In this document: positions 3,449 to 64,000 of the stretch, in pieces | Layout of the letters: each line of letters starts with the position of its first letter | How positions within the stretch are numbered: the first letter of the stretch is position 1 | DNA from: Candidatus Heimdallarchaeota archaeon | Lineage (GTDB): Archaea > Asgardarchaeota > Heimdallarchaeia > JABLTI01 | Assembly (NCBI GenBank): GCA_018238155.1 | Contig: JABCTZ010000036.1 | Coordinates: 160,001-224,000, forward strand | Length of the DNA: 64,000 nt | Direction of reading: 5' to 3' | Notes under the pieces: generated by a model | Told to the model about the DNA's origin: nothing | What the model saw: the letters and a program-made list of their open reading frames with translations, nothing else | Database searches by the model: none | Position numbers and translations under genes: made by a program

Positions 3449-4348
3449 GTGATTATCATGGAAATTACGCACGTAGGAAAACGAGGAATAGTATTTACTT
3501 TTGACGATTTATCTTCACCGGGTTATGCTTGCCCAACAAATGTTTATGTAGTTTACACAGGTAAGAGTTTCTTTATCTGTGACACTTTTCTAGGACCTGC
3601 ATCAATGAAATCTGTGAAGGAATATCTAGAAGAGAAATATGGAGAAAAAGAATACGTGGTTTTCAATAGTCATTCTCATTGGGATCATCATTGGGGAAAT
3701 AGTGCTTTTCTAAAGGCTAAAATAATTGCTCATGAATTGTGTATGGAAGATATGCGAGAAAACGCAGAGGGCATTCTTAAAAAGAAAGCTAAATTCAAAC
3801 GTGGGAAAGTAGTCATAACCTATCCAAACCTTCTCTTTAAAAACAATCTGAATTTTGATGAAGAACAAATTCAAATTTTCCATAGTCCTGGTCATACTCT
3901 AGATTCAAGTTCTTGTTATGACTCAGAAGACAAAGTTCTTTTCGCTGGGGATAATCTTGAAGAACCAATTCCGTATATCAATTCCAATTTAGAAGGTCTG
4001 AAAGAATATATTGAAACTTTGAAATATTATTCTTCTCTGGATATTGAAGTTATTATTCCCGGTCACGGTCAAGTATCTGATAAATCTCTACTTGAAGCCA
4101 ATTTACACTATCTTGAAAATTTGCCAAATCTTGTTGAACCTATTGATATTGAGAAACACGGTAAAGCTTTCTATATTGTTCATCTTGGAAATCTAAATAA
4201 ATTAGCAAAAATCTATGCTGAAGAGAAGAATAATAAAGAGGCTATTAAATTTTTCAAATTGCTACTTAAGATTAATGATCAAGTAAAGCTCTATGAAGAA
4301 GATTCAATTAAAGCCATTAACCAAAGAATTAAGGATTTAGAAAAATAA
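3449..4348 (+). CDS. MBL-fold metallo-hydrolase with C-terminal TPR-like helices
   Basis: HSHWDH, PGHT, AGD and PGHG motifs. Confidence 0.85.
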   Translation: MIIMEITHVGKRGIVFTFDDLSSPGYACPTNVYVVYTGKSFFICDTFLGPASMKSVKEYLEEKYGEKEYVVFNSHSHWDHHWGNSAFLKAKIIAHELCMEDMRENAEGILKKKAKFKRGKVVITYPNLLFKNNLNFDEEQIQIFHSPGHTLDSSSCYDSEDKVLFAGDNLEEPIPYINSNLEGLKEYIETLKYYSSLDIEVIIPGHGQVSDKSLLEANLHYLENLPNLVEPIDIEKHGKAFYIVHLGNLNKLAKIYAEEKNNKEAIKFFKLLLKINDQVKLYEEDSIKAINQRIKDLEK

Positions 4349-4499
4349 TCTACTTAGTAGTTTTATTTCACTCATTATCCTCTTTTCTTTTATTATTGTA
4401 AAATACTAATGAAATTTGAACAATTTATTAATTCGTGTAATTACATTTATAATATTTGATTACAGTATTTAATTAGGGGATAGTAATGAGAGGATAACA

Positions 4500-5792
4500 T
4501 TGACGATGAGAATACTATCTAGATATACAAAGAAATTATCTCTTTTATTAATTATTTTAGTAATTGTTCTTCCAAGCATTTTCACAGGTGTAATTGGGAG
4601 AAATGCTAATCAAAATAATTCGAATTCAATAAATAATATGAGTGCTCCATTATACAACTATAATGATATTGTAGTAAAAGATGATCTAGTAATTCTTTCA
4701 TCATTTGGTAATTTCTGGGAAATTTGGAATACATCTAACCCCAAAAAACCTTTTCTAGTAAAGACCATTCATTTTGATTCTGAAGACTTAGAATATATTT
4801 CCGATATGGAAATAATCAATGATTATCTTTTTATCAAGATTCCAGATCAAATAATTATTTATGATCTAGCAGACCCAACAAACCCAAATAATATAGCTTC
4901 AATTTCTTGCCAATTTTCTAATGTAGTAGAAATTCATTTTGAGAATAATCTTCTTTATTTGCTTCAATATGTGGAACATTCGAGTTACTATACTTCTACA
5001 CTTTCTATATTGAATATAAGTAAATTTAATTCAATTCAACTCTTGGGTGTTTACAATTCGAGTATTCATCATGCTAATTATGATATGTTACATGACCGTG
5101 ATAGATTATTGATTAAAGATAGTTTTGTGTATTTAATTTGCCTAGGAGATTATCATCCTGATGATATGGATTCCGTTCTAGAAATAATCGATATAAGTAA
5201 TAAATCAAATCCCCAAAAAAAAGGTGAATTTGTTTTGCCTTCCAGACCTTATTCTATTGGATTAAGGGATAATTTTGCATTTATTCCAACTCATTATGAT
5301 TGCCTTCAAATTATTGATTGTTCTAATCCAAGTGCTCCTATTAACGTTTCAAAATTCGAAAGTACTGAAATAATAAATGATATTGAAATACATAACAATG
5401 TTTGTTATCTTGCATTAGCAACTAAATTTGTTATTTTAGATTTAACAGATATTGAAAACATTATTACTCTTGGAGAGTATACACTAAGAAATCAAGGTAA
5501 TACCTATTTCAATAACCTCAAAGTACATGGTGATATCCTTTATACAATAGGTCCCTCTGAACATCATGATCGTTATTTTTTCATTTTTGATTGCTCTGAT
5601 TTAACAGACCCAACTAGGCTTTATCCAAAAGGAATACGAATTTCTGGTGAAATATTATTTAAATTAGTAATTTTTTCAACGTATGCGGGGATTATTTTGG
5701 GATCTATACTAATTATCGTTGGTCTCTTTTTCTTAATTAAGAAACTAAAACAAAGGAGATCCAGGGTTCATCAAAATGAAGCAAAAAGTTGA
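4500..5792 (+). CDS. Membrane-anchored LVIVD-repeat (beta-propeller) surface protein
   Basis: N-terminal signal/TM, repeated 'I(I)D(I/C/L)S(N/D)PxxP' units, C-terminal TM plus basic tail. Confidence 0.75.
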   Translation: MTMRILSRYTKKLSLLLIILVIVLPSIFTGVIGRNANQNNSNSINNMSAPLYNYNDIVVKDDLVILSSFGNFWEIWNTSNPKKPFLVKTIHFDSEDLEYISDMEIINDYLFIKIPDQIIIYDLADPTNPNNIASISCQFSNVVEIHFENNLLYLLQYVEHSSYYTSTLSILNISKFNSIQLLGVYNSSIHHANYDMLHDRDRLLIKDSFVYLICLGDYHPDDMDSVLEIIDISNKSNPQKKGEFVLPSRPYSIGLRDNFAFIPTHYDCLQIIDCSNPSAPINVSKFESTEIINDIEIHNNVCYLALATKFVILDLTDIENIITLGEYTLRNQGNTYFNNLKVHGDILYTIGPSEHHDRYFFIFDCSDLTDPTRLYPKGIRISGEILFKLVIFSTYAGIILGSILIIVGLFFLIKKLKQRRSRVHQNEAKS

Positions 5793-55355: not shown

Positions 55356-55766
55356 CTAAAAAAAAAGTTCAAAAAGTTCCTCTATTTGCTTGAGTGCTCT
55401 TTTTGCAGGGATAACTGCTAGTCCGGCTTTTTTTGCTTTAATCCCTCTAAATTTCATTGCCATAGTAAAATTTTCTGAGCGAGCAATTAATAAACTTCCT
55501 TGCTCTGTTCTTATATTCATATGTCTGAAAGTATCTTCGGGATTGCCTTCAATGCTTTGTAGAGCAAGCAATGTACTGATACTCTTTATTGTGTCAATTA
55601 GTAGGGCTGCTGTTCCTTCGACATTTATAGAACCTTTATGCTCGTGTACACTACAACAAGGTAATCCTTCTTCTGTTGTAAGAACTATATCTGATGAGCC
55701 TGCTCTGTCCATCAAATCACGGAGAATTTTTTCCGTTAGCTCGTTTATTGAAGCACTTTCATCCAT
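55356..55766 (-). CDS. Roadblock/LC7 domain protein
   Basis: Helix-'IVLTTEEGLP'-'TAALL'-'MNIRTEQGSLLI'-'GL'-helix pattern. Confidence 0.72.
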   Translation of the reverse strand: MDESASINELTEKILRDLMDRAGSSDIVLTTEEGLPCCSVHEHKGSINVEGTAALLIDTIKSISTLLALQSIEGNPEDTFRHMNIRTEQGSLLIARSENFTMAMKFRGIKAKKAGLAVIPAKRALKQIEELFELFF

Positions 55767-56163
55767 ACCAATACCCCGAATTATAATAATTAATTTGCTC
55801 TCTTAATTTTTTAACTTTCTTCAAATAATCAAATTACTTCTTACTATAATTAGTTTTGTATATAATCAAAAGTTGTATGCGATGGATCAAATTCATCCTT
55901 GGGATTTTTAAGGTTGGAAATATGAATTTTAAATTTTGCTTTTTTTTGGACAATGGTTAGAAATTAATCAACTGAAATTTATTAAGTATAAAAAATTTTA
56001 AAAATAAAATACAAGAGGGATAGCTCCTCTTATTCTCTTTTCTTACGGTTGAATTATGTAAAATTTCTGAAAAAAATCATTAAAATTTAATGATTAAAAC
56101 AGAACGATTTTTTAGCGCGCTTATAAAAAAAAAAGACTACTCTTACACAAACTCCTTCACTAA

Positions 56164-56919
56164 CTAAAATAATAATGGATAAGCAAGCTCGTGCAAGATT
56201 TCATATTTCTTTGGATCAAAATCTACTTCATCTAGTAATTCATTCAAGTAAGTGTACTCGAATTCATTTAATGCCACTGGGAAACTCTTCTTATCAATTT
56301 CCTCTTTTTGTATAGCAAAGAAATTTAGTAATAACGGACCAAGATATCCTGTTTCTACATAAATTTGAACTATCCAGTGGAAATAATGCATTAGTTCTTT
56401 CAGCGTTGAATTTTCGATTGCTTCTGCAATGATACTATAAGAAGTCATCAAAGCTGCCCTTCTAGTGAGATAGTCTTTAGTTTTTCCTACAGAAATCAAT
56501 GCCGCTAATAGTTTAAGATCTGCCCAACTTGAAAGTGCAATAATAACTGCATATTGTAAATCAGCTTTACTTTCTGTCAGAATCTTTAGCAATATTGGAA
56601 GAGAATCGCTATGACCTATTTTTCCTATTACTTCAATTACAGCGAGTTTTTTCGCTAGAGAATCTGATTTGAGTTCTATATGCAGTTGTTTTACTAAATC
56701 ACTTGAGGGTTTCTTCTCGTATACTCTAGCAATAGCCATTGAACAAGCATTTCTAACATTCCATGATGGATCTTCTAACCCGTCAAGTAATTTATCAAAG
56801 GACGCTTGTCCGCCAACTTCGAGAAGGGTTAAAGCTCCTTTAACACGATCAATCTCTTTTTCTGAGGTTAATCTTCTCTTTGCTATTCCTCTTTGAAATA
56901 CTCGTTTGATAAAAGCCAT
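56164..56919 (-). CDS. HEAT-repeat protein
   Basis: 'LLDGLEDPSWNVRNAC', 'VIGKIG...LPILLKIL', 'DYLTRRAA'. Confidence 0.8.
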   Translation of the reverse strand: MAFIKRVFQRGIAKRRLTSEKEIDRVKGALTLLEVGGQASFDKLLDGLEDPSWNVRNACSMAIARVYEKKPSSDLVKQLHIELKSDSLAKKLAVIEVIGKIGHSDSLPILLKILTESKADLQYAVIIALSSWADLKLLAALISVGKTKDYLTRRAALMTSYSIIAEAIENSTLKELMHYFHWIVQIYVETGYLGPLLLNFFAIQKEEIDKKSFPVALNEFEYTYLNELLDEVDFDPKKYEILHELAYPLLF

Positions 56920-56921
56920 GA

Positions 56922-58520
56922 TTAACTGCTCTCCTCTTGTTGAGTAACTATCTCATCAATCAATACACGAACTGAAGCTAGCTTTGATTGACTCATTTTG
57001 TTCAAATGGCTATAGTCAACTTCCTTGCGTATTTTTGAAGTCCCATATAGCACACCTGTTGCAACACTAGTTTCTTTTTCTTTTGCTTGTTCTTCTTTTT
57101 GAGCTCTAACGAAATCTAACAACTCTTTTGAGATATCAATTGCTCGAGTGTAAATTGGAATGTCCCACGGTGACATTGGATTGTCATCTAGACTGCCCAC
57201 TGAGAGAAGTGTTCCCACAACCATCCTGTCTAATTTTTTAAACATAATAATATCAGGGAAACCTGGTGTTGGCATTTTGAAATTTTGACGATAGAGCAAA
57301 CTGTGGTTATGAAGTATTAGTAACTGTTCCAGATTAACCGATTCATCATCAATTTCGAATACGTAAATTGGTTTTGAATCAACTTTAACATAGCCAAAAA
57401 ATTGGAATGCTTTGCTACTTTCTAACCATTGACCAACATTGACTACTTGGAAACGATGAACAAATTTAATGTAATCATCAATCTGATCCCATTCTCTTTC
57501 GTAGATATTCCATGTTTTTCTCCAATATCCAGTTGAGTCTGCATGCCAGTAGACATTTGTAGATTGAGTTCTATCTCTAACGTCCTTGATGATTTTTCTT
57601 GCTTCTGGACCCCCACCTACTTTATTAAGAAGGTCGAGATCACCGTTCATTTTAAGAACTTCTTGAATGATTTCTCTTGGTTTATCCAATTTATCTTCAA
57701 AAGCTCTTTTGATTAGTTCAAGAGAGAAATGGTTCATTGGTGGTCCATAAATTGGTTTGAGTAAACGTGGCAGTGTATTGAATTTGTATTCTCCTTTTTC
57801 GAGAATTTTTGTGGCTATTTCTGTATGGATGTAATTTGCAAAGGCTTCTATTAGAATCCCAGTAAGATTCTTCTTTTGCACAGCCTCTGCTCGCCTGTTA
57901 AGAAAAGTAATTATTTCCAAAAGAAAGTTCTGGAAAAGGGATGTTTTTCTTGAGCTTTCAGGTGGGAGATAAAAATCTTGTACTCCAAATGTAGAGAGGA
58001 GGCGTATAACAGCGATCATATCTTGGAAATAAGCCAAACCCCAACCTATTTGACGATCTTCTTTCAAGCCATAAGCATTATTCATCATTAGTTCCTTAAT
58101 GATCATATCCATACGATAAATTTGTGTGAGCATTTCACTATCATTTGTAGCAGATTTTTCAGCAAAATATGCATGAGCAAATGCATGAATAAACATAACT
58201 CTCAAAGAGAAATCTCTTTCAGGGCTTCCTTCAAGTTCGAAGGGAAGACTCAAGTAAATCATTGTAGGCTTACTTGAGAAAACTGAAATACATTCATCTG
58301 CCAAGTAATTCCTCGCTCGAGATTTTCTCAAATTTTCAACCATTTCTTGGGAAAGCACCGCATGTGGGCTTCCACCTAATTCCATTACTTGGTAGAGACT
58401 ACTGTGAAGCTCTGGATCAATAAATACTAGTACTTTATAGTCTTCTGGTGTTTCACCTACAAATTCCTCGAAGTCTTTTCGAGCTTGTTTATAGATTTCA
58501 ACTACTCGTGGATTGTCCAA
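56922..58520 (-). CDS. Divergent SpoVR/YcgB-like protein (zincin-like HxxxH...E without catalytic Glu)
   Basis: 'IHAFAHAYF' and 'IEAFANYIH' parallel SpoVR H-x-x-x-H-x-x-FF and NEGWASYWH; follows AAA+ and vWA genes. Confidence 0.55.
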   Translation of the reverse strand: MDNPRVVEIYKQARKDFEEFVGETPEDYKVLVFIDPELHSSLYQVMELGGSPHAVLSQEMVENLRKSRARNYLADECISVFSSKPTMIYLSLPFELEGSPERDFSLRVMFIHAFAHAYFAEKSATNDSEMLTQIYRMDMIIKELMMNNAYGLKEDRQIGWGLAYFQDMIAVIRLLSTFGVQDFYLPPESSRKTSLFQNFLLEIITFLNRRAEAVQKKNLTGILIEAFANYIHTEIATKILEKGEYKFNTLPRLLKPIYGPPMNHFSLELIKRAFEDKLDKPREIIQEVLKMNGDLDLLNKVGGGPEARKIIKDVRDRTQSTNVYWHADSTGYWRKTWNIYEREWDQIDDYIKFVHRFQVVNVGQWLESSKAFQFFGYVKVDSKPIYVFEIDDESVNLEQLLILHNHSLLYRQNFKMPTPGFPDIIMFKKLDRMVVGTLLSVGSLDDNPMSPWDIPIYTRAIDISKELLDFVRAQKEEQAKEKETSVATGVLYGTSKIRKEVDYSHLNKMSQSKLASVRVLIDEIVTQQEESS

Positions 58521-59895
58521 GTCTCATACTCTCCGTAATGATGGTTTTTGCTAGTACATCCATCCTTGATGGATTAATTATTACTGGATATGCGATACCT
58601 CGCAGGGCTCTTCTTGTATCTCTCCAGAGATCCGTGTGTCGTAATCGCTCTGATCCAATCATAAAGTAGGATACTTTCCAAGTTCTACTTCTGTCTCTTA
58701 CAACTTCTCTAAGTAAGCTGTTAAGTTCAATGTAACAATTCCGTGCAACAGGATCTATTACTTCCCGTTCTTCTTCAAAATAATGCGATAAACTTGTTGA
58801 TGGTTTTACATTATATCCCGGAATCAGCTCATTTGGGCGTCCATCTGTGACAATGATGATGTGGATGTCTCTATTTTGAGTGTTTTTCTTAATACGCGCA
58901 TGATCTATTGCTGCTCTAATTGAAGCACTCATTGGAGTTCGTCCTTTCGCTTGTGCTGTTAATAGAAATCGTTCCAATTCTCCTTCTGAAGAAACTATTC
59001 GGCGATTCTTGGAAATAGGAACAACTGCAGTTCTGAATGCTCGCTGGTTTGTTCTTCTTGATCTGCCTTGTTTCTTCAAGTAATAGAAGATTGCCAGAGA
59101 AGTTAAGAGAGCACCTTCAAGTCTAGAAAAATGTGTTCCTTGTACTACATTTCTCATAGATTGAGAAATATCAACAGTAAGATAGATCTGTGCATTTCGA
59201 TCTTTCTTCATGATGACGATATCATCTGTATCAATAGATTTTGGTGGAATAGATTGGGAGGTAAGAATTGAGTGTTCGAATGTCTTCTTTTTATGGATTT
59301 TACCTCGAGGTCTGACAATTGTTTCATTTACAGGCCTAGCTGGTAATTGCCTAGTTAGCCAGTTACCAAGTTGGTTTCCTAAGAAATCCATGACTTCCTC
59401 ACGTTTTATCCTCATCTTATGACCAAAACGATCAGTAATTTCAATGTCTGTTAATTCTTCCAGAGTACGTAATGACTCTGTCAATTGTTTTTTGTAATCT
59501 GCTGTACCTTCGAATCCTTTCAGATGTTTTTGAATAAAGGACTCAATTTCCTCTTTCGTTTGCAGTTCACCCATGTTAACTTTCAATAGAGCATCAGGTA
59601 AAGCTTCATTGCCTAGATACTCAAGTATTTCAAGTTCCCGGATAAGATCTTCTTCTTCCATGGGTTCCATTGGTGTAACAAGCAATCTTCTGCGGATATT
59701 TTTTACTGCAACAGCATTCTCAAGAGACATACCTAAAACTAGGGCTTCTCGAGAGCTTTGCCCTTTACGGGGGTCTCGCCATTTTTGCAATACGCTTGCA
59801 GCATCTGCGAAGTCAAACACAAAATCGGGGTCTCGCCAAAGTGTCAATGGATCCGAAAATCTCTCTCGAGTTATCATGTGTAATCTATGAGGCAT
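58498..59895 (-). CDS. von Willebrand factor A domain protein
   Basis: MIDAS DISQS, TP, IIIVTDGRPN. Confidence 0.85.
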   Translation of the reverse strand: MPHRLHMITRERFSDPLTLWRDPDFVFDFADAASVLQKWRDPRKGQSSREALVLGMSLENAVAVKNIRRRLLVTPMEPMEEEDLIRELEILEYLGNEALPDALLKVNMGELQTKEEIESFIQKHLKGFEGTADYKKQLTESLRTLEELTDIEITDRFGHKMRIKREEVMDFLGNQLGNWLTRQLPARPVNETIVRPRGKIHKKKTFEHSILTSQSIPPKSIDTDDIVIMKKDRNAQIYLTVDISQSMRNVVQGTHFSRLEGALLTSLAIFYYLKKQGRSRRTNQRAFRTAVVPISKNRRIVSSEGELERFLLTAQAKGRTPMSASIRAAIDHARIKKNTQNRDIHIIIVTDGRPNELIPGYNVKPSTSLSHYFEEEREVIDPVARNCYIELNSLLREVVRDRSRTWKVSYFMIGSERLRHTDLWRDTRRALRGIAYPVIINPSRMDVLAKTIITESMRLGQSTSS

Positions 59896-59953
59896 TGTGT
59901 ATGCGCTCCATTTCTTGTAAATATTAATAAATATCCAGTATTTCCTGGATATT

Positions 59954-61516
59954 TTAGATATGATCGATTAATAGCAATTGTTCATAGCTTGGTTTCAATT
60001 GCTCGATAACTTTTTCTTGGGTTTTCTTTGCTTGTTTGCCAAGGTTTTCATATTTGATGATTATTTTTATCAATTCATCATCAGTTAATGCTCTCATTTT
60101 ATCAATATCCTCAGAGATGCTCTCAACAGTGGTTAACTCTCCTTCAGATTTGATTTCTCTACGAAGCATTGTTTTTACTTCTTGGACAGCATCATTGATT
60201 AAGTTTCGTGGAATATCGAAGAGTTCAACAAGTCTCTTTGCATCATCCAATGTAAGTATAGCAATTTCATTTTCTACATAGAACTGATCTTTTCGTAGCA
60301 CAGTTTCACCAATTAAACTGTAGAGTGTACGTAAATCAACATGAGGTGTTTTTTCTGGATCATGAATATCAATCAGTGATTTGAAAAACATGTCTCGAGT
60401 AACTTTTTTACGAGCATATGCTTCAGATTCTCCTGCTTTCAATGAATTTGGTATGGACAAATCAGCAAGTAATCCGATGAAATGGATAGCTAGTTTACTG
60501 ACACCTTTAGAGCCAAATGCTTTTGTCTTTTCAAGTAAAGAGACAAGCGCTGGATTTGCAGTCATATTATTTAGACAGAGCGTGAGATGTTCTTTGAACA
60601 TATCTTCAACGATTTTTACTCGTTCATGTTTTGTTCTTGCTGGCCATAAAACTTCGGGAATACGGTTGATTATTGGTTGCGCTTCTTCACCGAAGACACT
60701 CAAGGGAGCATTTGAAGTAAAGATCATTGCACCATCTATAAAAGCAGGACGACCTTGAATACTGTATTTAATTCCACTTGGATCTTCCAAGAAACCCATT
60801 AATGCTTCAAGGAAATTCAATGGTAATCTTTGAATTTCGTTTACAACAACAAAACCTTGAGAGAGAACACCTACTTTGTGTGCCATTGGAGAGAAGGTAG
60901 TACTTGTTTCTCCTCCAAATAGTTGCTCAAGATTTTCTACACCTGCAAGAAGCATGTAAAGACCTTCTGGATCATTTCTGGGGTCAATTTGTGCTACATT
61001 GACAACTGTTTTTTCTGCTTTAACTGCATGTAATGCTTTGACCATCATTGCAGATTCTACTTTAGCAACATCTGAACTTTTATTCAGATTAATGTCTGAA
61101 CCTGTAACTTTCTTGAGTGATTCGCTTATAGTCTTTTGACAGAAAGGACAAAGACTCTTCAAGACTCCTGCAGAAGCTTTGGGATCCTTTTCAAAGGATT
61201 CAGCAATATGAATGAGATATCCGGCGTCTTCATTGAATGGGCAGTTATTAATGTGCCATTTCTTTTCATTGATTTCATGAGTAAGATGCTTAAGCATAAC
61301 TCTCGCAAAAAGAGTTTTAGCTTCACCTGTAGGTCCAATTAGAAGCACTTTGCCTGAAACTGCTATCTTATCCATGACAATACCTTTTGAGTGTTCATTT
61401 CCACGAACTGCTGGATCGTCATTAATTCGTTTTCTTAGTTCGGGGTCATTCAAAAGTCTTCTAACAGAGCACCCAGAATACCCTTTTTTCGCTAAAGAGG
61501 CAATTGTTACTAACAT
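59954..61516 (-). CDS. AAA+ ATPase (PrkA/YeaG- or Mg-chelatase/MoxR-related)
   Basis: Walker A GPTGEAKT, Walker B VVVNE, sensor-1 FTSN, Arg finger NR; 'CPFNED...LCPFC' insert. Confidence 0.82.
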   Translation of the reverse strand: MLVTIASLAKKGYSGCSVRRLLNDPELRKRINDDPAVRGNEHSKGIVMDKIAVSGKVLLIGPTGEAKTLFARVMLKHLTHEINEKKWHINNCPFNEDAGYLIHIAESFEKDPKASAGVLKSLCPFCQKTISESLKKVTGSDINLNKSSDVAKVESAMMVKALHAVKAEKTVVNVAQIDPRNDPEGLYMLLAGVENLEQLFGGETSTTFSPMAHKVGVLSQGFVVVNEIQRLPLNFLEALMGFLEDPSGIKYSIQGRPAFIDGAMIFTSNAPLSVFGEEAQPIINRIPEVLWPARTKHERVKIVEDMFKEHLTLCLNNMTANPALVSLLEKTKAFGSKGVSKLAIHFIGLLADLSIPNSLKAGESEAYARKKVTRDMFFKSLIDIHDPEKTPHVDLRTLYSLIGETVLRKDQFYVENEIAILTLDDAKRLVELFDIPRNLINDAVQEVKTMLRREIKSEGELTTVESISEDIDKMRALTDDELIKIIIKYENLGKQAKKTQEKVIEQLKPSYEQLLLIDHI

Positions 61517-61563
61517 TTTTCGTTACACTTCCAAAATTATCTATTGTTCTTCTATTTTTAAAT

Positions 61564-62118
61564 TTATTTTTTCTCTCGTTTAGATTTTTTTGCTTTCAGT
61601 TTCGATGATTCTTTTTTCTTCAACATTTTTGGTTTTATTCCTAAAACTTCAATGTAATCATCTAACCAGTTAAAACAGCTGAGTATATCTTCTGTTTTAT
61701 TTTCATGTATTTCCATTACATTCCATAATCTATCCGTTAATCTGATTAAGGAATAAGCTTCGATTATTTCTGAAGATGTTAAAGCAATAGCTTTATCTGC
61801 ATTGTAACTAGCAATCAATACTGGAATGTTTTTTGTAGCTTCATTCCAAACAAAATATTCCCAGAGATATTCCTTAATTCGAGAGAGTTCTTTCGTTTTT
61901 GTAGAGTTAATTAAGAATACAGTACCATCAGTTTTTTTGAGAAGAGCTTCACGTAAGCCGCTCTCGTAATCTGGTTCTTCCAAAGAAAAAGTATGTGTTG
62001 GTATTTTTTCTTTTGGATCCTTTACAGATTCTTTTATAACATCCACTATATAATCTCTCGTTTCCGATTTTTCTCCAATAAATAGAATATGTTTTGGCGG
62101 TTTAGTACGTTTGAACAT
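61564..62118 (-). CDS. Degenerate Arf-like protein (pseudo-GTPase)
   Basis: C-terminal half aligns by eye to Arf ('TDGTVFLINS...IPVLI...EIIEAYSL...DRLWNV...FNWL'), but G1, G3 and G4 are lost. Confidence 0.65.
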   Translation of the reverse strand: MFKRTKPPKHILFIGEKSETRDYIVDVIKESVKDPKEKIPTHTFSLEEPDYESGLREALLKKTDGTVFLINSTKTKELSRIKEYLWEYFVWNEATKNIPVLIASYNADKAIALTSSEIIEAYSLIRLTDRLWNVMEIHENKTEDILSCFNWLDDYIEVLGIKPKMLKKKESSKLKAKKSKREKK

Positions 62119-62388: not shown

Positions 62389-63075
62389 ATGATTCTGTTG
62401 TCCCAAGAAAATAATTCACCACCAGCTGAAAATTCTTTATCTTTAGAAACAAATGAACCTGGAGAAGAATTTCGATCAGTATTTGTGATACCCAAAAAAA
62501 TCAAACAAGCAAGAATTGTGATAAGTATCGCTCAAGGAATTATGGGCATATTTCTTATTGCTCTACCGACCATGTATTTTGTAAATCCTAAAAATCCTAC
62601 TACTTCATTAACAATATTTGCCATTTTAGGGTTAACCTTTGGAGTTGTATTATTGGGCCTACTCCCAACGAATATTGCTAAAACCATTAATTCCAAATTG
62701 ATTTTAGGTCAAAAAAGTGTTAGTATTAGAAACTCCTTTGGATGGAAAGTATTTCCATGGAAGGAAATTCAAGAGATTTTGATTACTGAAAAGTTAAGTA
62801 GTGACCCAAATAACCCTAAATCTATTGGAATTAGTTTGATTCGTTTTCGTACAATTACAAAAAGCACTTACTTTATGGCTGAATCGTATCCTGCTGATGA
62901 AGTTAGAGAACTTAAGAAATCAACAAAAGAAGCTTTTGCAACTGCATTATTAGGAACAGATTATTCTGTATCAGAAAAAACAGAAAGACCTTCTGTCCGT
63001 TCAAGATTTATCTATTATTATAAGGCAACAGCTAAAGCAAATCAGGTATCAATTTCCGAAAAAAATAATGAATGA
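62389..63075 (+). CDS. Two-TM membrane protein with PH-like domain
   Basis: Two TM helices, then 'VSIRNSFGWKVFPWKEIQEI' bPH-like pattern. Confidence 0.6.
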   Translation: MILLSQENNSPPAENSLSLETNEPGEEFRSVFVIPKKIKQARIVISIAQGIMGIFLIALPTMYFVNPKNPTTSLTIFAILGLTFGVVLLGLLPTNIAKTINSKLILGQKSVSIRNSFGWKVFPWKEIQEILITEKLSSDPNNPKSIGISLIRFRTITKSTYFMAESYPADEVRELKKSTKEAFATALLGTDYSVSEKTERPSVRSRFIYYYKATAKANQVSISEKNNE

Positions 63076-63139: not shown

Positions 63140-64000
63140 TTATTTCTTCTTTTCAGCTTTCATTCTGGAAGCTGCAATGAGCTCGAATCCTTGAGCGTTA
63201 CACATTACTGGATTGTCAGGTACGACTACTTCTTCTGGTGATTTAACGATATTCTCTTTCCACATCATCTCTTTTAGAACATCACCAAAGACATAGGCTC
63301 CACCACCTGTCAATATAACTCGTTCTATCCATGCATCGGGTGGTAAAGTTCCAAGTAATCTTGAGGTTTCATCAATAATAATTTCAGAAATATTTTGAAT
63401 ATAATATTCCTTGACTTCTGAAACATCGTATTGTTGTCCACCAACCATAACAGCTTTTAGATTCTTCTCAATTGTTTTCATTAAATCGAAAGGTCTAATG
63501 ATTTTACCAGTTTGGTCCTGCAACGTTCGAGCCATACGTGTTGTTAAAGTATCAACTGCTTCCTCTAAACTACCACTTGCAGTTCTCATTAAACGCCCTT
63601 GATAAACAGTAAGGATGTCAGTAGAACCATGACCAATATCTACAATAATAGCGTCTACAGCTCTGCTTTCTCCAGAGGATTTTAAGATTTGATAGTAAGA
63701 TCCGTAAGGTTCTGGTAATACAAGACATTTTTTAACGTTGACATTGTAGTTGTGACTTTCGCCTGTAGCATCATTTTTAACGTTGATTTCCATCTCTTCA
63801 GACAAGCCCTTAGAAAGTGTGGACATCTCTTCTTGGGATGTTGCAACAGGTACTCCAGTAGCAATGAGAATTTCTTCCCCATCTCCCTTTATGAAAAGGG
63901 AGAGAGCTGCTTTAATAGCTATGACAGCATCTTTGATGCTTTTCATCTTACCTTCAGATGCTAAAGGTCGTTTGATTTCGCTTTGCAAACGAGCTAATTC
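63140..64000 (-). CDS. ParM/StbA-type actin-like ATPase (5' truncated by window edge)
   Basis: ATGVP, VLPEPYGS, VDIGHGSTD, ILTGGGA, NAQGF. Confidence 0.85.
   Translation of the reverse strand, partial: ELARLQSEIKRPLASEGKMKSIKDAVIAIKAALSLFIKGDGEEILIATGVPVATSQEEMSTLSKGLSEEMEINVKNDATGESHNYNVNVKKCLVLPEPYGSYYQILKSSGESRAVDAIIVDIGHGSTDILTVYQGRLMRTASGSLEEAVDTLTTRMARTLQDQTGKIIRPFDLMKTIEKNLKAVMVGGQQYDVSEVKEYYIQNISEIIIDETSRLLGTLPPDAWIERVILTGGGAYVFGDVLKEMMWKENIVKSPEEVVVPDNPVMCNAQGFELIAASRMKAEKKK

Follow-up and report, generated by a model that had tools for sequence, protein, structure and literature searches.

We describe here a cluster of five genes at positions 56164-62118 of a 64,000-nucleotide stretch of Candidatus Heimdallarchaeota DNA (contig JABCTZ010000036.1, positions 160,001 to 224,000; this whole stretch is called the window below). 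All five lie on the minus strand and encode, in this order, an Arf-like protein, an AAA+ ATPase, a vWA protein, a SpoVR-like protein of 532 aa and a HEAT-repeat protein; public records label each of them 'hypothetical'. We propose that the cluster specifies an ATP-driven module for protein remodelling or signalling, and that its core is probably, though by no means certainly, a highly diverged equivalent of the bacterial PrkA/YeaG - YeaH/YhbH - SpoVR/YcgB system. As part of the same proposal, the operon would be vertically inherited and confined to a subset of Heimdallarchaeia. A first-pass annotation of the window took the combination to be undescribed. Full-text literature searches indeed found no publication on the five-gene operon; the core, however, is in our judgement probably a cousin of a module already known.

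The resemblance starts with gene order. In most bacterial species the genes for PrkA, YeaH and SpoVR make up one operon with conserved cofitness, and they have been read as one pathway (bioRxiv 10.1101/072470). Purified PrkA of B. anthracis is an AAA+ ATPase whose protease activity is negligible (PMC13001217). The families concerned are PrkA/YeaG (PF08298 and PF06798), YeaH/YhbH (DUF444, PF04285) and SpoVR/YcgB (PF04293, PF24755). A homologue search with E. coli YeaH gave near-identical enterobacterial sequences only, and diverse triads were taken from plasmid records; five of these annotate the genes in the order prkA-yeaH-spoVR. The Heimdall genes run likewise from AAA+ through vWA-type to SpoVR-fold protein, in agreement with the order that the first-pass annotation gave for the trio. 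Among our control genomes, the module is present in Haloferax as well. Of 301 Asgard genomes only 1 was found to carry canonical SpoVR, on short contigs; the Heimdall system does not, therefore, stem from a recent uptake of the standard module.

All five open reading frames are intact and closely packed, with a 47-bp gap, a 58-bp gap, a 23-bp overlap and a 2-bp gap in operon order. These spacings, like the gene coordinates (Table 1), match the open reading frame listing exactly as first reported, and the motifs quoted at that stage (the AAA+ insert, the metal-ion-dependent adhesion site or MIDAS, HAFAH and EAFANYIH) are all present in the translations. The 532-aa gene opens with TTG, 23 bp inside the vWA gene, at a position where, in the alignment, several orthologues have their ATG start. 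Ratios of nonsynonymous to synonymous substitution rates (dN/dS) against the closest relative are, in operon order, 0.12, 0.05, 0.03, 0.06 and 0.08; purifying selection acts on all five genes, with values of 0.03-0.17, and orthologues are 27-96% identical. Since the ratios are low throughout, the Arf-like gene included, all five are maintained coding genes.

The genes are also co-conserved in relatives, as had been anticipated. Among 400 Asgard genomes searched, 56 carry the AAA+ gene: 9/11 of family f1, 30/31 of f2, 12/12 of f3, 1/1 of f5 and 3/3 of f6, all five families belonging to one class, Heimdallarchaeia. The same search found it in 0 of 22 genomes of family f4 and nowhere in the rest of the phylum. 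For the survey of synteny 20 loci were fetched from the five families, and the order is kept in these 20 genomes. In every complete locus the AAA+, vWA and SpoVR-like genes adjoin one another, and the HEAT gene lies directly 3' of the SpoVR-like gene wherever the contig extends that far, with an overlap of 4-8 nt or a gap of at most 12 nt. Overlaps of 4-11 nt predominate at the vWA/SpoVR-like and SpoVR-like/HEAT junctions and would fit translational coupling. The cluster is single-copy, its distribution follows families and genera, and it has no mobile-element context. A word-indexed database held 32 homologues of the 532-aa protein, all 'hypothetical' and all from Heimdall or Asgard metagenome-assembled genomes, in two tiers of identity (66-93% and 37-39%). 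One locus of the distant tier (L001, 37-52% identity) and one closer (L002) have all five genes in an unchanged order within completely different neighbourhoods. In two loci of a distant lineage (L079 and L078) the AAA+ gene is divergent from the string vWA - SpoVR-like - HEAT, without an Arf-like gene. In L078 a TnpB (Cas12f1-like_TNB) gene stands at 3580-5184, between the divergent AAA+ gene and the vWA/SpoVR-like genes. A genome labelled Promethearchaeota (L077, 6365-9464) has an AAA+ orthologue of 43% identity flanked by genes of 192 and 201 aa of unknown nature; no vWA, SpoVR-like or HEAT gene is near it, and neither flanking gene matches the pseudo-Arf profile.

The AAA+ protein was initially called PrkA-like on account of its insert, and this part of the claim stands. 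Its Walker A and B motifs are about 160 residues apart and enclose a Cys-rich insert with the CPxxE...(C/S)Px(C/W) segment that is a feature of PrkA, here C92-P-F-N-E96-D97 and L122-C-P-F-C126. Sensor 1 (TSN) and an NR motif do not vary across the family alignment, and the Walker B region lines up with G-hh-E-F-x-E of PrkA. When the family was compared by hhalign with an alignment of seven diverse PrkA sequences, the latter proved the best profile match (probability 91.6%, E 8e-7), with 186 columns aligned between Walker A and sensor 1. Single sequences gave 94.4% (E 8.5e-8) for Thermomicrobium PrkA and 71.5% for Pontibacillus PrkA, with single-sequence controls at 56% (YifB), 55% (McrB), 44% (ClpB), 27% (RavA), 20% (GlnG) and 13% (Lon). 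The insert alone matches the PrkA insert at 73.6% (E 2.9e-5; cross-controls E 0.03-0.34), and CPMHEEP...LCPWC of Thermomicrobium PrkA aligns exactly with the Asgard CPF(N/L)ED...LCP(F/Y)C. The Cys/His cluster of the insert could form a zinc knuckle. In genus g4, loci L060 and L062 have all three of its Cys replaced (S/S/S and S/S/A) while the remainder of the protein is about 50% identical; replacement of the three together is as expected of a single metal site. In these two loci the putative zinc site appears to have been lost naturally.

The 532-aa protein was predicted to be SpoVR- or zincin-like, and its fold bears this out. An AlphaFold2 model (predicted local distance difference test, pLDDT, 71; predicted template modelling score, pTM, 0.70) had three SpoVR clusters as its top matches in the Atlas fold search, each with PF04293 in 100% of its members. 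The best of them reached template modelling scores of 0.56 (query) and 0.67 (target); the 380 aligned residues are spread over residues 1-513, and both sides are predicted models. Residues 1-326 match the catalytic domains of zincin peptidases (gluzincins M1, M3, M4 and M32), with which the protein would share a pair of His on a single helix and a Glu downstream of them. It differs from them in reading HAFAH in place of HExxH: at residue 113 no member has Glu, and at least 90% of the 20 have Ala. The catalytic Glu, the general base, is thus missing in every member, and canonical peptidase activity is therefore unlikely; the protein is probably no canonical peptidase, and the HxxxH...E array may possibly be a metal site. 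Motifs point in the same direction as the fold. The SpoVR signatures AH-x3/4-H-x-x-FF and T-x4-N-E-G-[WFC]-A-x-[FWY]-x-H read IHAFAHAYF and T-GILIEAFANYIH here, in the same order and with E-x-[FW]-A in common. EAFANYIH aligns with NEGWATFWH of SpoVR/YcgB in every hhalign run, and runs at low mact place IHAFAHAYF on AH(V/A)xAHxxFF of canonical SpoVR, collinear with the second motif. The agreement is degenerate and suggestive only. On these predicted features the protein is SpoVR-like by fold and motif order, by no statistical sequence criterion. The SpoVR Pfam model weakly matches (E 1e-5 to 7e-4) ~1300-aa proteins in other Asgard families at positions ~251-330, the NEGWATFWH region (L012, L013, L014 and L016, from genomes G009, G041 and G031). 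These may be another zincin-like family sharing that motif.

In the vWA protein the MIDAS is intact, as first noted, and reads D242-I-S-Q-S246, T320, D351; none of D242, S244, S246, T320 and D351 varies in more than one of 17 members. Its vWA domain comes after some 220 N-terminal residues, an arrangement also seen in YeaH.

Several results weigh against this reading of the core. No core protein passes the PrkA, DUF444 or SpoVR family hidden Markov models (HMMs). PF08298 (AAA_PrkA) has no match at E<=1 in the AAA+ protein or in any of 17 members, nor does a genome-wide search with it find the operon locus. E. coli YeaG alone gives 2.4% by hhalign, and the PrkA signal is largely that of Walker A and a 45-column segment of the insert; neither the N-terminal nor the C-terminal portion of this AAA+ protein matches PrkA. 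The C-terminal 'kinase-like' domain of PrkA is undetectable (residues 275-520 against the PrkA C-terminal alignment, probability 0.09%, E 0.59), the Heimdall protein is about 120 aa shorter, and its Walker B carries N-E. The predicted model is poor in the core of the AAA+ protein (pLDDT <50 for residues 179-290). By its sequence features we would call this protein PrkA-like in its AAA+ module, outside the PrkA family as currently defined. For the vWA protein, DUF444 (PF04285) gives no Pfam match, and the hhalign comparison with YeaH is weak and covers the vWA core only (probability 16%, E 1.6e-3), at the equivalent position in both proteins; as judged from its sequence it appears generically vWA-like only. 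No Pfam family, SpoVR included, matches the 532-aa protein or any of 20 members, distant ones among them, and the SpoVR model finds nothing at this protein genome-wide. Comparison of its family with an alignment of E. coli YcgB and seven other SpoVR records was not significant (probability 1.5%, E 0.033).

Other searches were silent. When 1.84 billion representatives were searched exhaustively with an HMM of the 532-aa family, only 20 proteins came back, none of them canonical SpoVR and none a bridge to it. Foldseek found no match in the PDB at E<=0.001 for the model of the 532-aa protein or for that of the AAA+ protein, the poor core of the latter making it uninformative on PrkA; for the same reason, the absence of the solved PrkA homologue 9xip from the AAA+ model matches listed says nothing either way. 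Sequence searches of the PDB with the AAA+ and the 532-aa family profiles yielded noise only, and an Atlas feature search with the 532-aa protein gave nothing of use.

Table 1. Genes and sequence elements of the cluster, in window coordinates
Feature	Position	Strand	Basis
Arf-fold pseudo-GTPase (184 aa, P0001), first gene	61564..62118	-	Pfam Arf C-terminal half
AAA+ ATPase with PrkA-type insert (520 aa, P0002)	59954..61516	-	motifs, hhalign
Walker A GPTGEAKT, residues 61-68, Ala replacing the usual Gly before Lys	61313..61336	-	G61, T63, E65, K67 invariant (alignment A2)
Cys/His cluster H88-x3-C92 ... C123-x2-C126 in Walker A-B insert	61139..61255	-	kept in 15/17 sequences
Walker B region GFVVVNE, Asn226 replacing the usual Asp, Glu227 kept	60836..60856	-	N226, E227 invariant (alignment A2)
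vWA/MIDAS protein (465 aa, P0003), ~215-aa N-terminal region, then vWA domain	58498..59895	-	weak vWA HMM matches
MIDAS D242-x-S-x-S246 (plus T320, D351 elsewhere in the gene)	59158..59172	-	family alignment
SpoVR-fold protein with zincin-like N-terminal domain (532 aa, P0004)	56922..58520	-	predicted fold
H112-A-F-A-H116, HxxxH without the catalytic Glu of HExxH	58173..58187	-	H112, H116, A117 invariant
E225-A-F-A-N-Y-I-H232, candidate third metal ligand region	57825..57848	-	E225, F227 invariant
HEAT-repeat protein (251 aa, P0005), last gene	56164..56919	-	Pfam HEAT_2, HEAT
Oligo-T tract, ~30 nt past the HEAT stop codon	56125..56135	-	T run also in closest relative

The main rival is that an AAA+/vWA pair of the MoxR/chelatase type was assembled here independently and matures an adjacent zincin-like metalloprotein, for example by metal loading, as modelled on CoxD/CoxE, NorQ/NorD, CbbQ/CbbO and BchI/BchD. 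The resemblance to PrkA-YeaH-SpoVR would then be convergent, or would reflect only the deep ancestry of AAA+, vWA and zincin domains. We hold this to be unlikely, yet it has to be taken seriously. As in those pairs and in RavA-ViaA, the AAA+ gene adjoins a gene for a MIDAS-bearing vWA protein. The only Pfam matches of the AAA+ family are AAA_5 (16/17 members), Sigma54_activat (15/17) and Mg_chelatase (9/17). All of them are below threshold: the best AAA_5 score is 18.5 bits (cut-off 22) and the best Mg_chelatase score 13.6 bits (cut-off 20.3), mostly with coverage of the P-loop alone, so that the MoxR/Mg-chelatase cut-offs (PF07726, PF07728 and PF01078) are not reached. The vWA protein has likewise weak matches to VWA_CoxE, VWA_2 and VWA_3 in Pfam and to cobaltochelatase and BchD models in NCBIfam, those to VWA_CoxE and cobaltochelatase being below threshold too. 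By protein-language-model features, the neighbours of the AAA+ protein in the Atlas (0.94-0.96) are all AAA_5/Mg_chelatase clusters, archaeal ones of 480-545 aa among them, and not PrkA, which speaks both for this rival and against our proposal, as do the unmatched PF08298 and the missing C-terminal domain. On the other hand, PrkA leads McrB, YifB, RavA, ClpB and Lon by about three orders of magnitude when hhalign comparisons are made like for like. The Walker A-B spacing and Cys-rich insert are shared with PrkA, the insert being no MoxR feature, and the lid domain resembles that of Lon/Clp/HslU/RuvB, not that of MoxR-type proteins. Moreover, the fold neighbours of the third core protein are specifically SpoVR, the gene order equals the bacterial triad, and a partner set of SpoVR-fold, HEAT and pseudo-Arf proteins is not known for MoxR/chelatase pairs.

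If the core is a counterpart of the bacterial module, a possible course of its action can be outlined. By analogy, the AAA+ protein would oligomerise into a ring, and the vWA protein would dock to it through the MIDAS as adaptor or substrate, as happens in other AAA+/vWA pairs. The two together might act on, or with, the SpoVR-like pseudo-peptidase, which would be their partner or their client. The HEAT protein, fixed at the 3' end and probably translationally coupled, could scaffold the complex. The pseudo-Arf, added in most lineages and usually encoded first, would serve as a nucleotide-independent adaptor or regulator. We suggest this scheme because of the general behaviour of AAA+/vWA pairs and the coupling of the genes. 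Analogy with bacteria would further place the physiological role in adaptation to starvation or stress.

Relative to the bacterial module, the Heimdall operon adds two conserved genes, those of the HEAT protein and the pseudo-Arf, and is limited to a few Heimdallarchaeia families. The first of the two products is readily identified: its HEAT repeats (PF13646, PF02985) are unambiguous (HEAT_2 1.8e-13, 51 bits, cut-off 27.7; HEAT 6.8e-6, 26.3 bits, cut-off 23.5). The Arf-like protein was described at first as a pseudo-GTPase, and this is confirmed across its family. It passes the Pfam Arf model (PF00025) with 35.8 bits (cut-off 22.3) over residues 60-156 only, equal to profile positions 79-174, the C-terminal half of the profile. 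SLIRLTDR and the W/L positions of this half are kept across the family, and the half remains recognisable as it is in Asgard Arf GTPases (ArfR and others). The protein ranks 37th of 48 Arf-family matches in the genome. Unlike those GTPases, the family lacks every nucleotide-binding motif. Its P-loop position reads GEKSETRD, and G1 (GxxxxGK[ST]), G3 (DxxG), G4 (NKxD) and G5 are absent in all 13 aligned members. Judging by motifs, the protein should have the Arf fold, not be a GTPase and be unable to bind nucleotide. A reading of the gene as pseudogene is ruled out by its dN/dS of 0.12-0.17 together with conservation across families. A published survey of Asgard Arf GTPases mentions neither such pseudo-GTPases nor AAA+ neighbours (bioRxiv 10.1101/2024.02.28.582541). 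The first-pass annotation went on to link the machine to eukaryote-like small-GTPase and membrane machinery. This link finds no support: the nucleotide motifs are lost, the two ends of the protein differ from family to family, and nothing conserved alongside the cluster is a membrane component.

Whether the pseudo-Arf belongs to the operon, as was also claimed, has to be answered lineage by lineage. In f1, f2 and most of f3 its gene is first in the cluster, adjacent and co-oriented, with gaps of -11 to 78 bp. Elsewhere the gene upstream of AAA+ encodes FKBP (f5), DUF389 (f6) or a ParB-like protein (f3 genus g4). At least three genomes of genus g4 (f3) have the Arf-like gene 2 kb off on the other strand or on another contig, and it has been relocated in f5 as well; where non-adjacent, it is still found elsewhere in the genome (G015, G036, G092 and G163). 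A family-specific pseudo-Arf profile, searched in the 400 Asgard genomes, found the protein in 54, once per genome: 10/11 of f1, 30/31 of f2, 12/12 of f3 and 1/1 of f5, with 0 of 3 in f6 and none outside f1, f2, f3 and f5. It thus co-occurs with the operon in four of five families, even when not adjacent. This co-occurrence is suggestive; the genomes are kin, so it does not amount to a statistical test.

These facts can also be read as a machine of four genes only (AAA+, vWA, SpoVR-like and HEAT), beside which the Arf-like gene, under a promoter of its own, is a neighbour peculiar to certain lineages and unrelated in its role. Such a reading would suit the absence of the gene from the locus in f5, f6 and part of f3, its absence from all three f6 genomes, and the two distant loci (L079 and L078) that keep the other four genes without it. 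It would also suit a TATA-like element, TTTAAAAATA, in the 47-bp gap before the AAA+ gene. This lies at 61555-61564 (-), immediately 3' of the Arf-like stop codon and 37-46 nt upstream of the AAA+ start, and is kept in the closest relative. It is possibly an internal archaeal TATA box, in which case the Arf-like gene may have a separate transcript, a point that tells against a five-gene unit. We nevertheless find the four-gene reading improbable. The Arf-like gene is adjacent and co-oriented in most sampled loci, is under purifying selection, is single-copy and confined to four of the AAA+-bearing families, and persists elsewhere in the genome when it has left the locus.

At the opposite extreme, both the pseudo-Arf and the HEAT protein would belong to the AAA+ machine as integral subunits, the nearest archaeal kin of eukaryotes having co-opted a GTPase fold as a nucleotide-independent adaptor and paired it with a solenoid scaffold. 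We give this little credence as a specific claim. If it were true, the Arf-plus-HEAT/adaptin logic of eukaryotic coats would have a precedent among prokaryotes, one that runs on an ATPase and not on a GTP switch. In some genera a further protein encoded downstream may then be a subunit as well. It is the product of a co-oriented 136-aa open reading frame at 55356-55766 (-), 397 bp downstream of the HEAT gene, which matches Robl_LC7 below the cut-off (E 0.0027, profile positions 2-86 of 91). Roadblock proteins are regulators of small GTPases, and this Roadblock/LC7-like protein could be related to the pseudo-Arf. A co-oriented frame of 133-136 aa is at the same position in the four sampled loci of genus g1 and in none of the other families.

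As to a defence or conflict system, or the cargo of a mobile element, we consider either very improbable. AAA+/vWA/HEAT combinations are known in some conflict systems, and a TnpB gene stands inside the cluster of one relative. PADLOC, however, gave no matches except a marginal one for the HEAT protein, and assigned no defence system. The cluster is single-copy, strongly purified by selection and distributed by family and genus away from mobile-element context, and its base composition is not distinct from that of the surrounding sequence.

The Heimdall operon matters for two reasons. Firstly, the PrkA-YeaH-SpoVR system is widespread in bacteria and genetically coherent, without a known biochemical mechanism. 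A pared-down archaeal version, having no 'kinase' domain, a zincin-like partner without Glu and two extra fixed subunits, would reveal the essential parts of the module, and the operon offers a new system for structural work. Secondly, one member of the expanded Arf family became a maintained pseudo-GTPase tied to an ATP-driven machine, a conversion that bears on how small-GTPase folds gained adaptor roles before eukaryotes.

Some minor features flank the cluster. At the 3' end of the unit, the oligo-T tract may be an archaeal terminator. The gap between the HEAT gene and the 136-aa frame (55767-56163) is 397 bp long vs 164 bp in the closest relative, owing to an AT-rich insertion of about 230 bp. 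Upstream of the operon lie a gene for a predicted membrane protein of 228 aa at 62389-63075 (+) and an archaeal actin-like gene (ALP_N / MreB-like_C) at 63140-64000 (-). Distant relatives do not have them; in a close relative (L002) the same upstream positions are held by an actin-like gene and by a 218-aa gene without a Pfam family.

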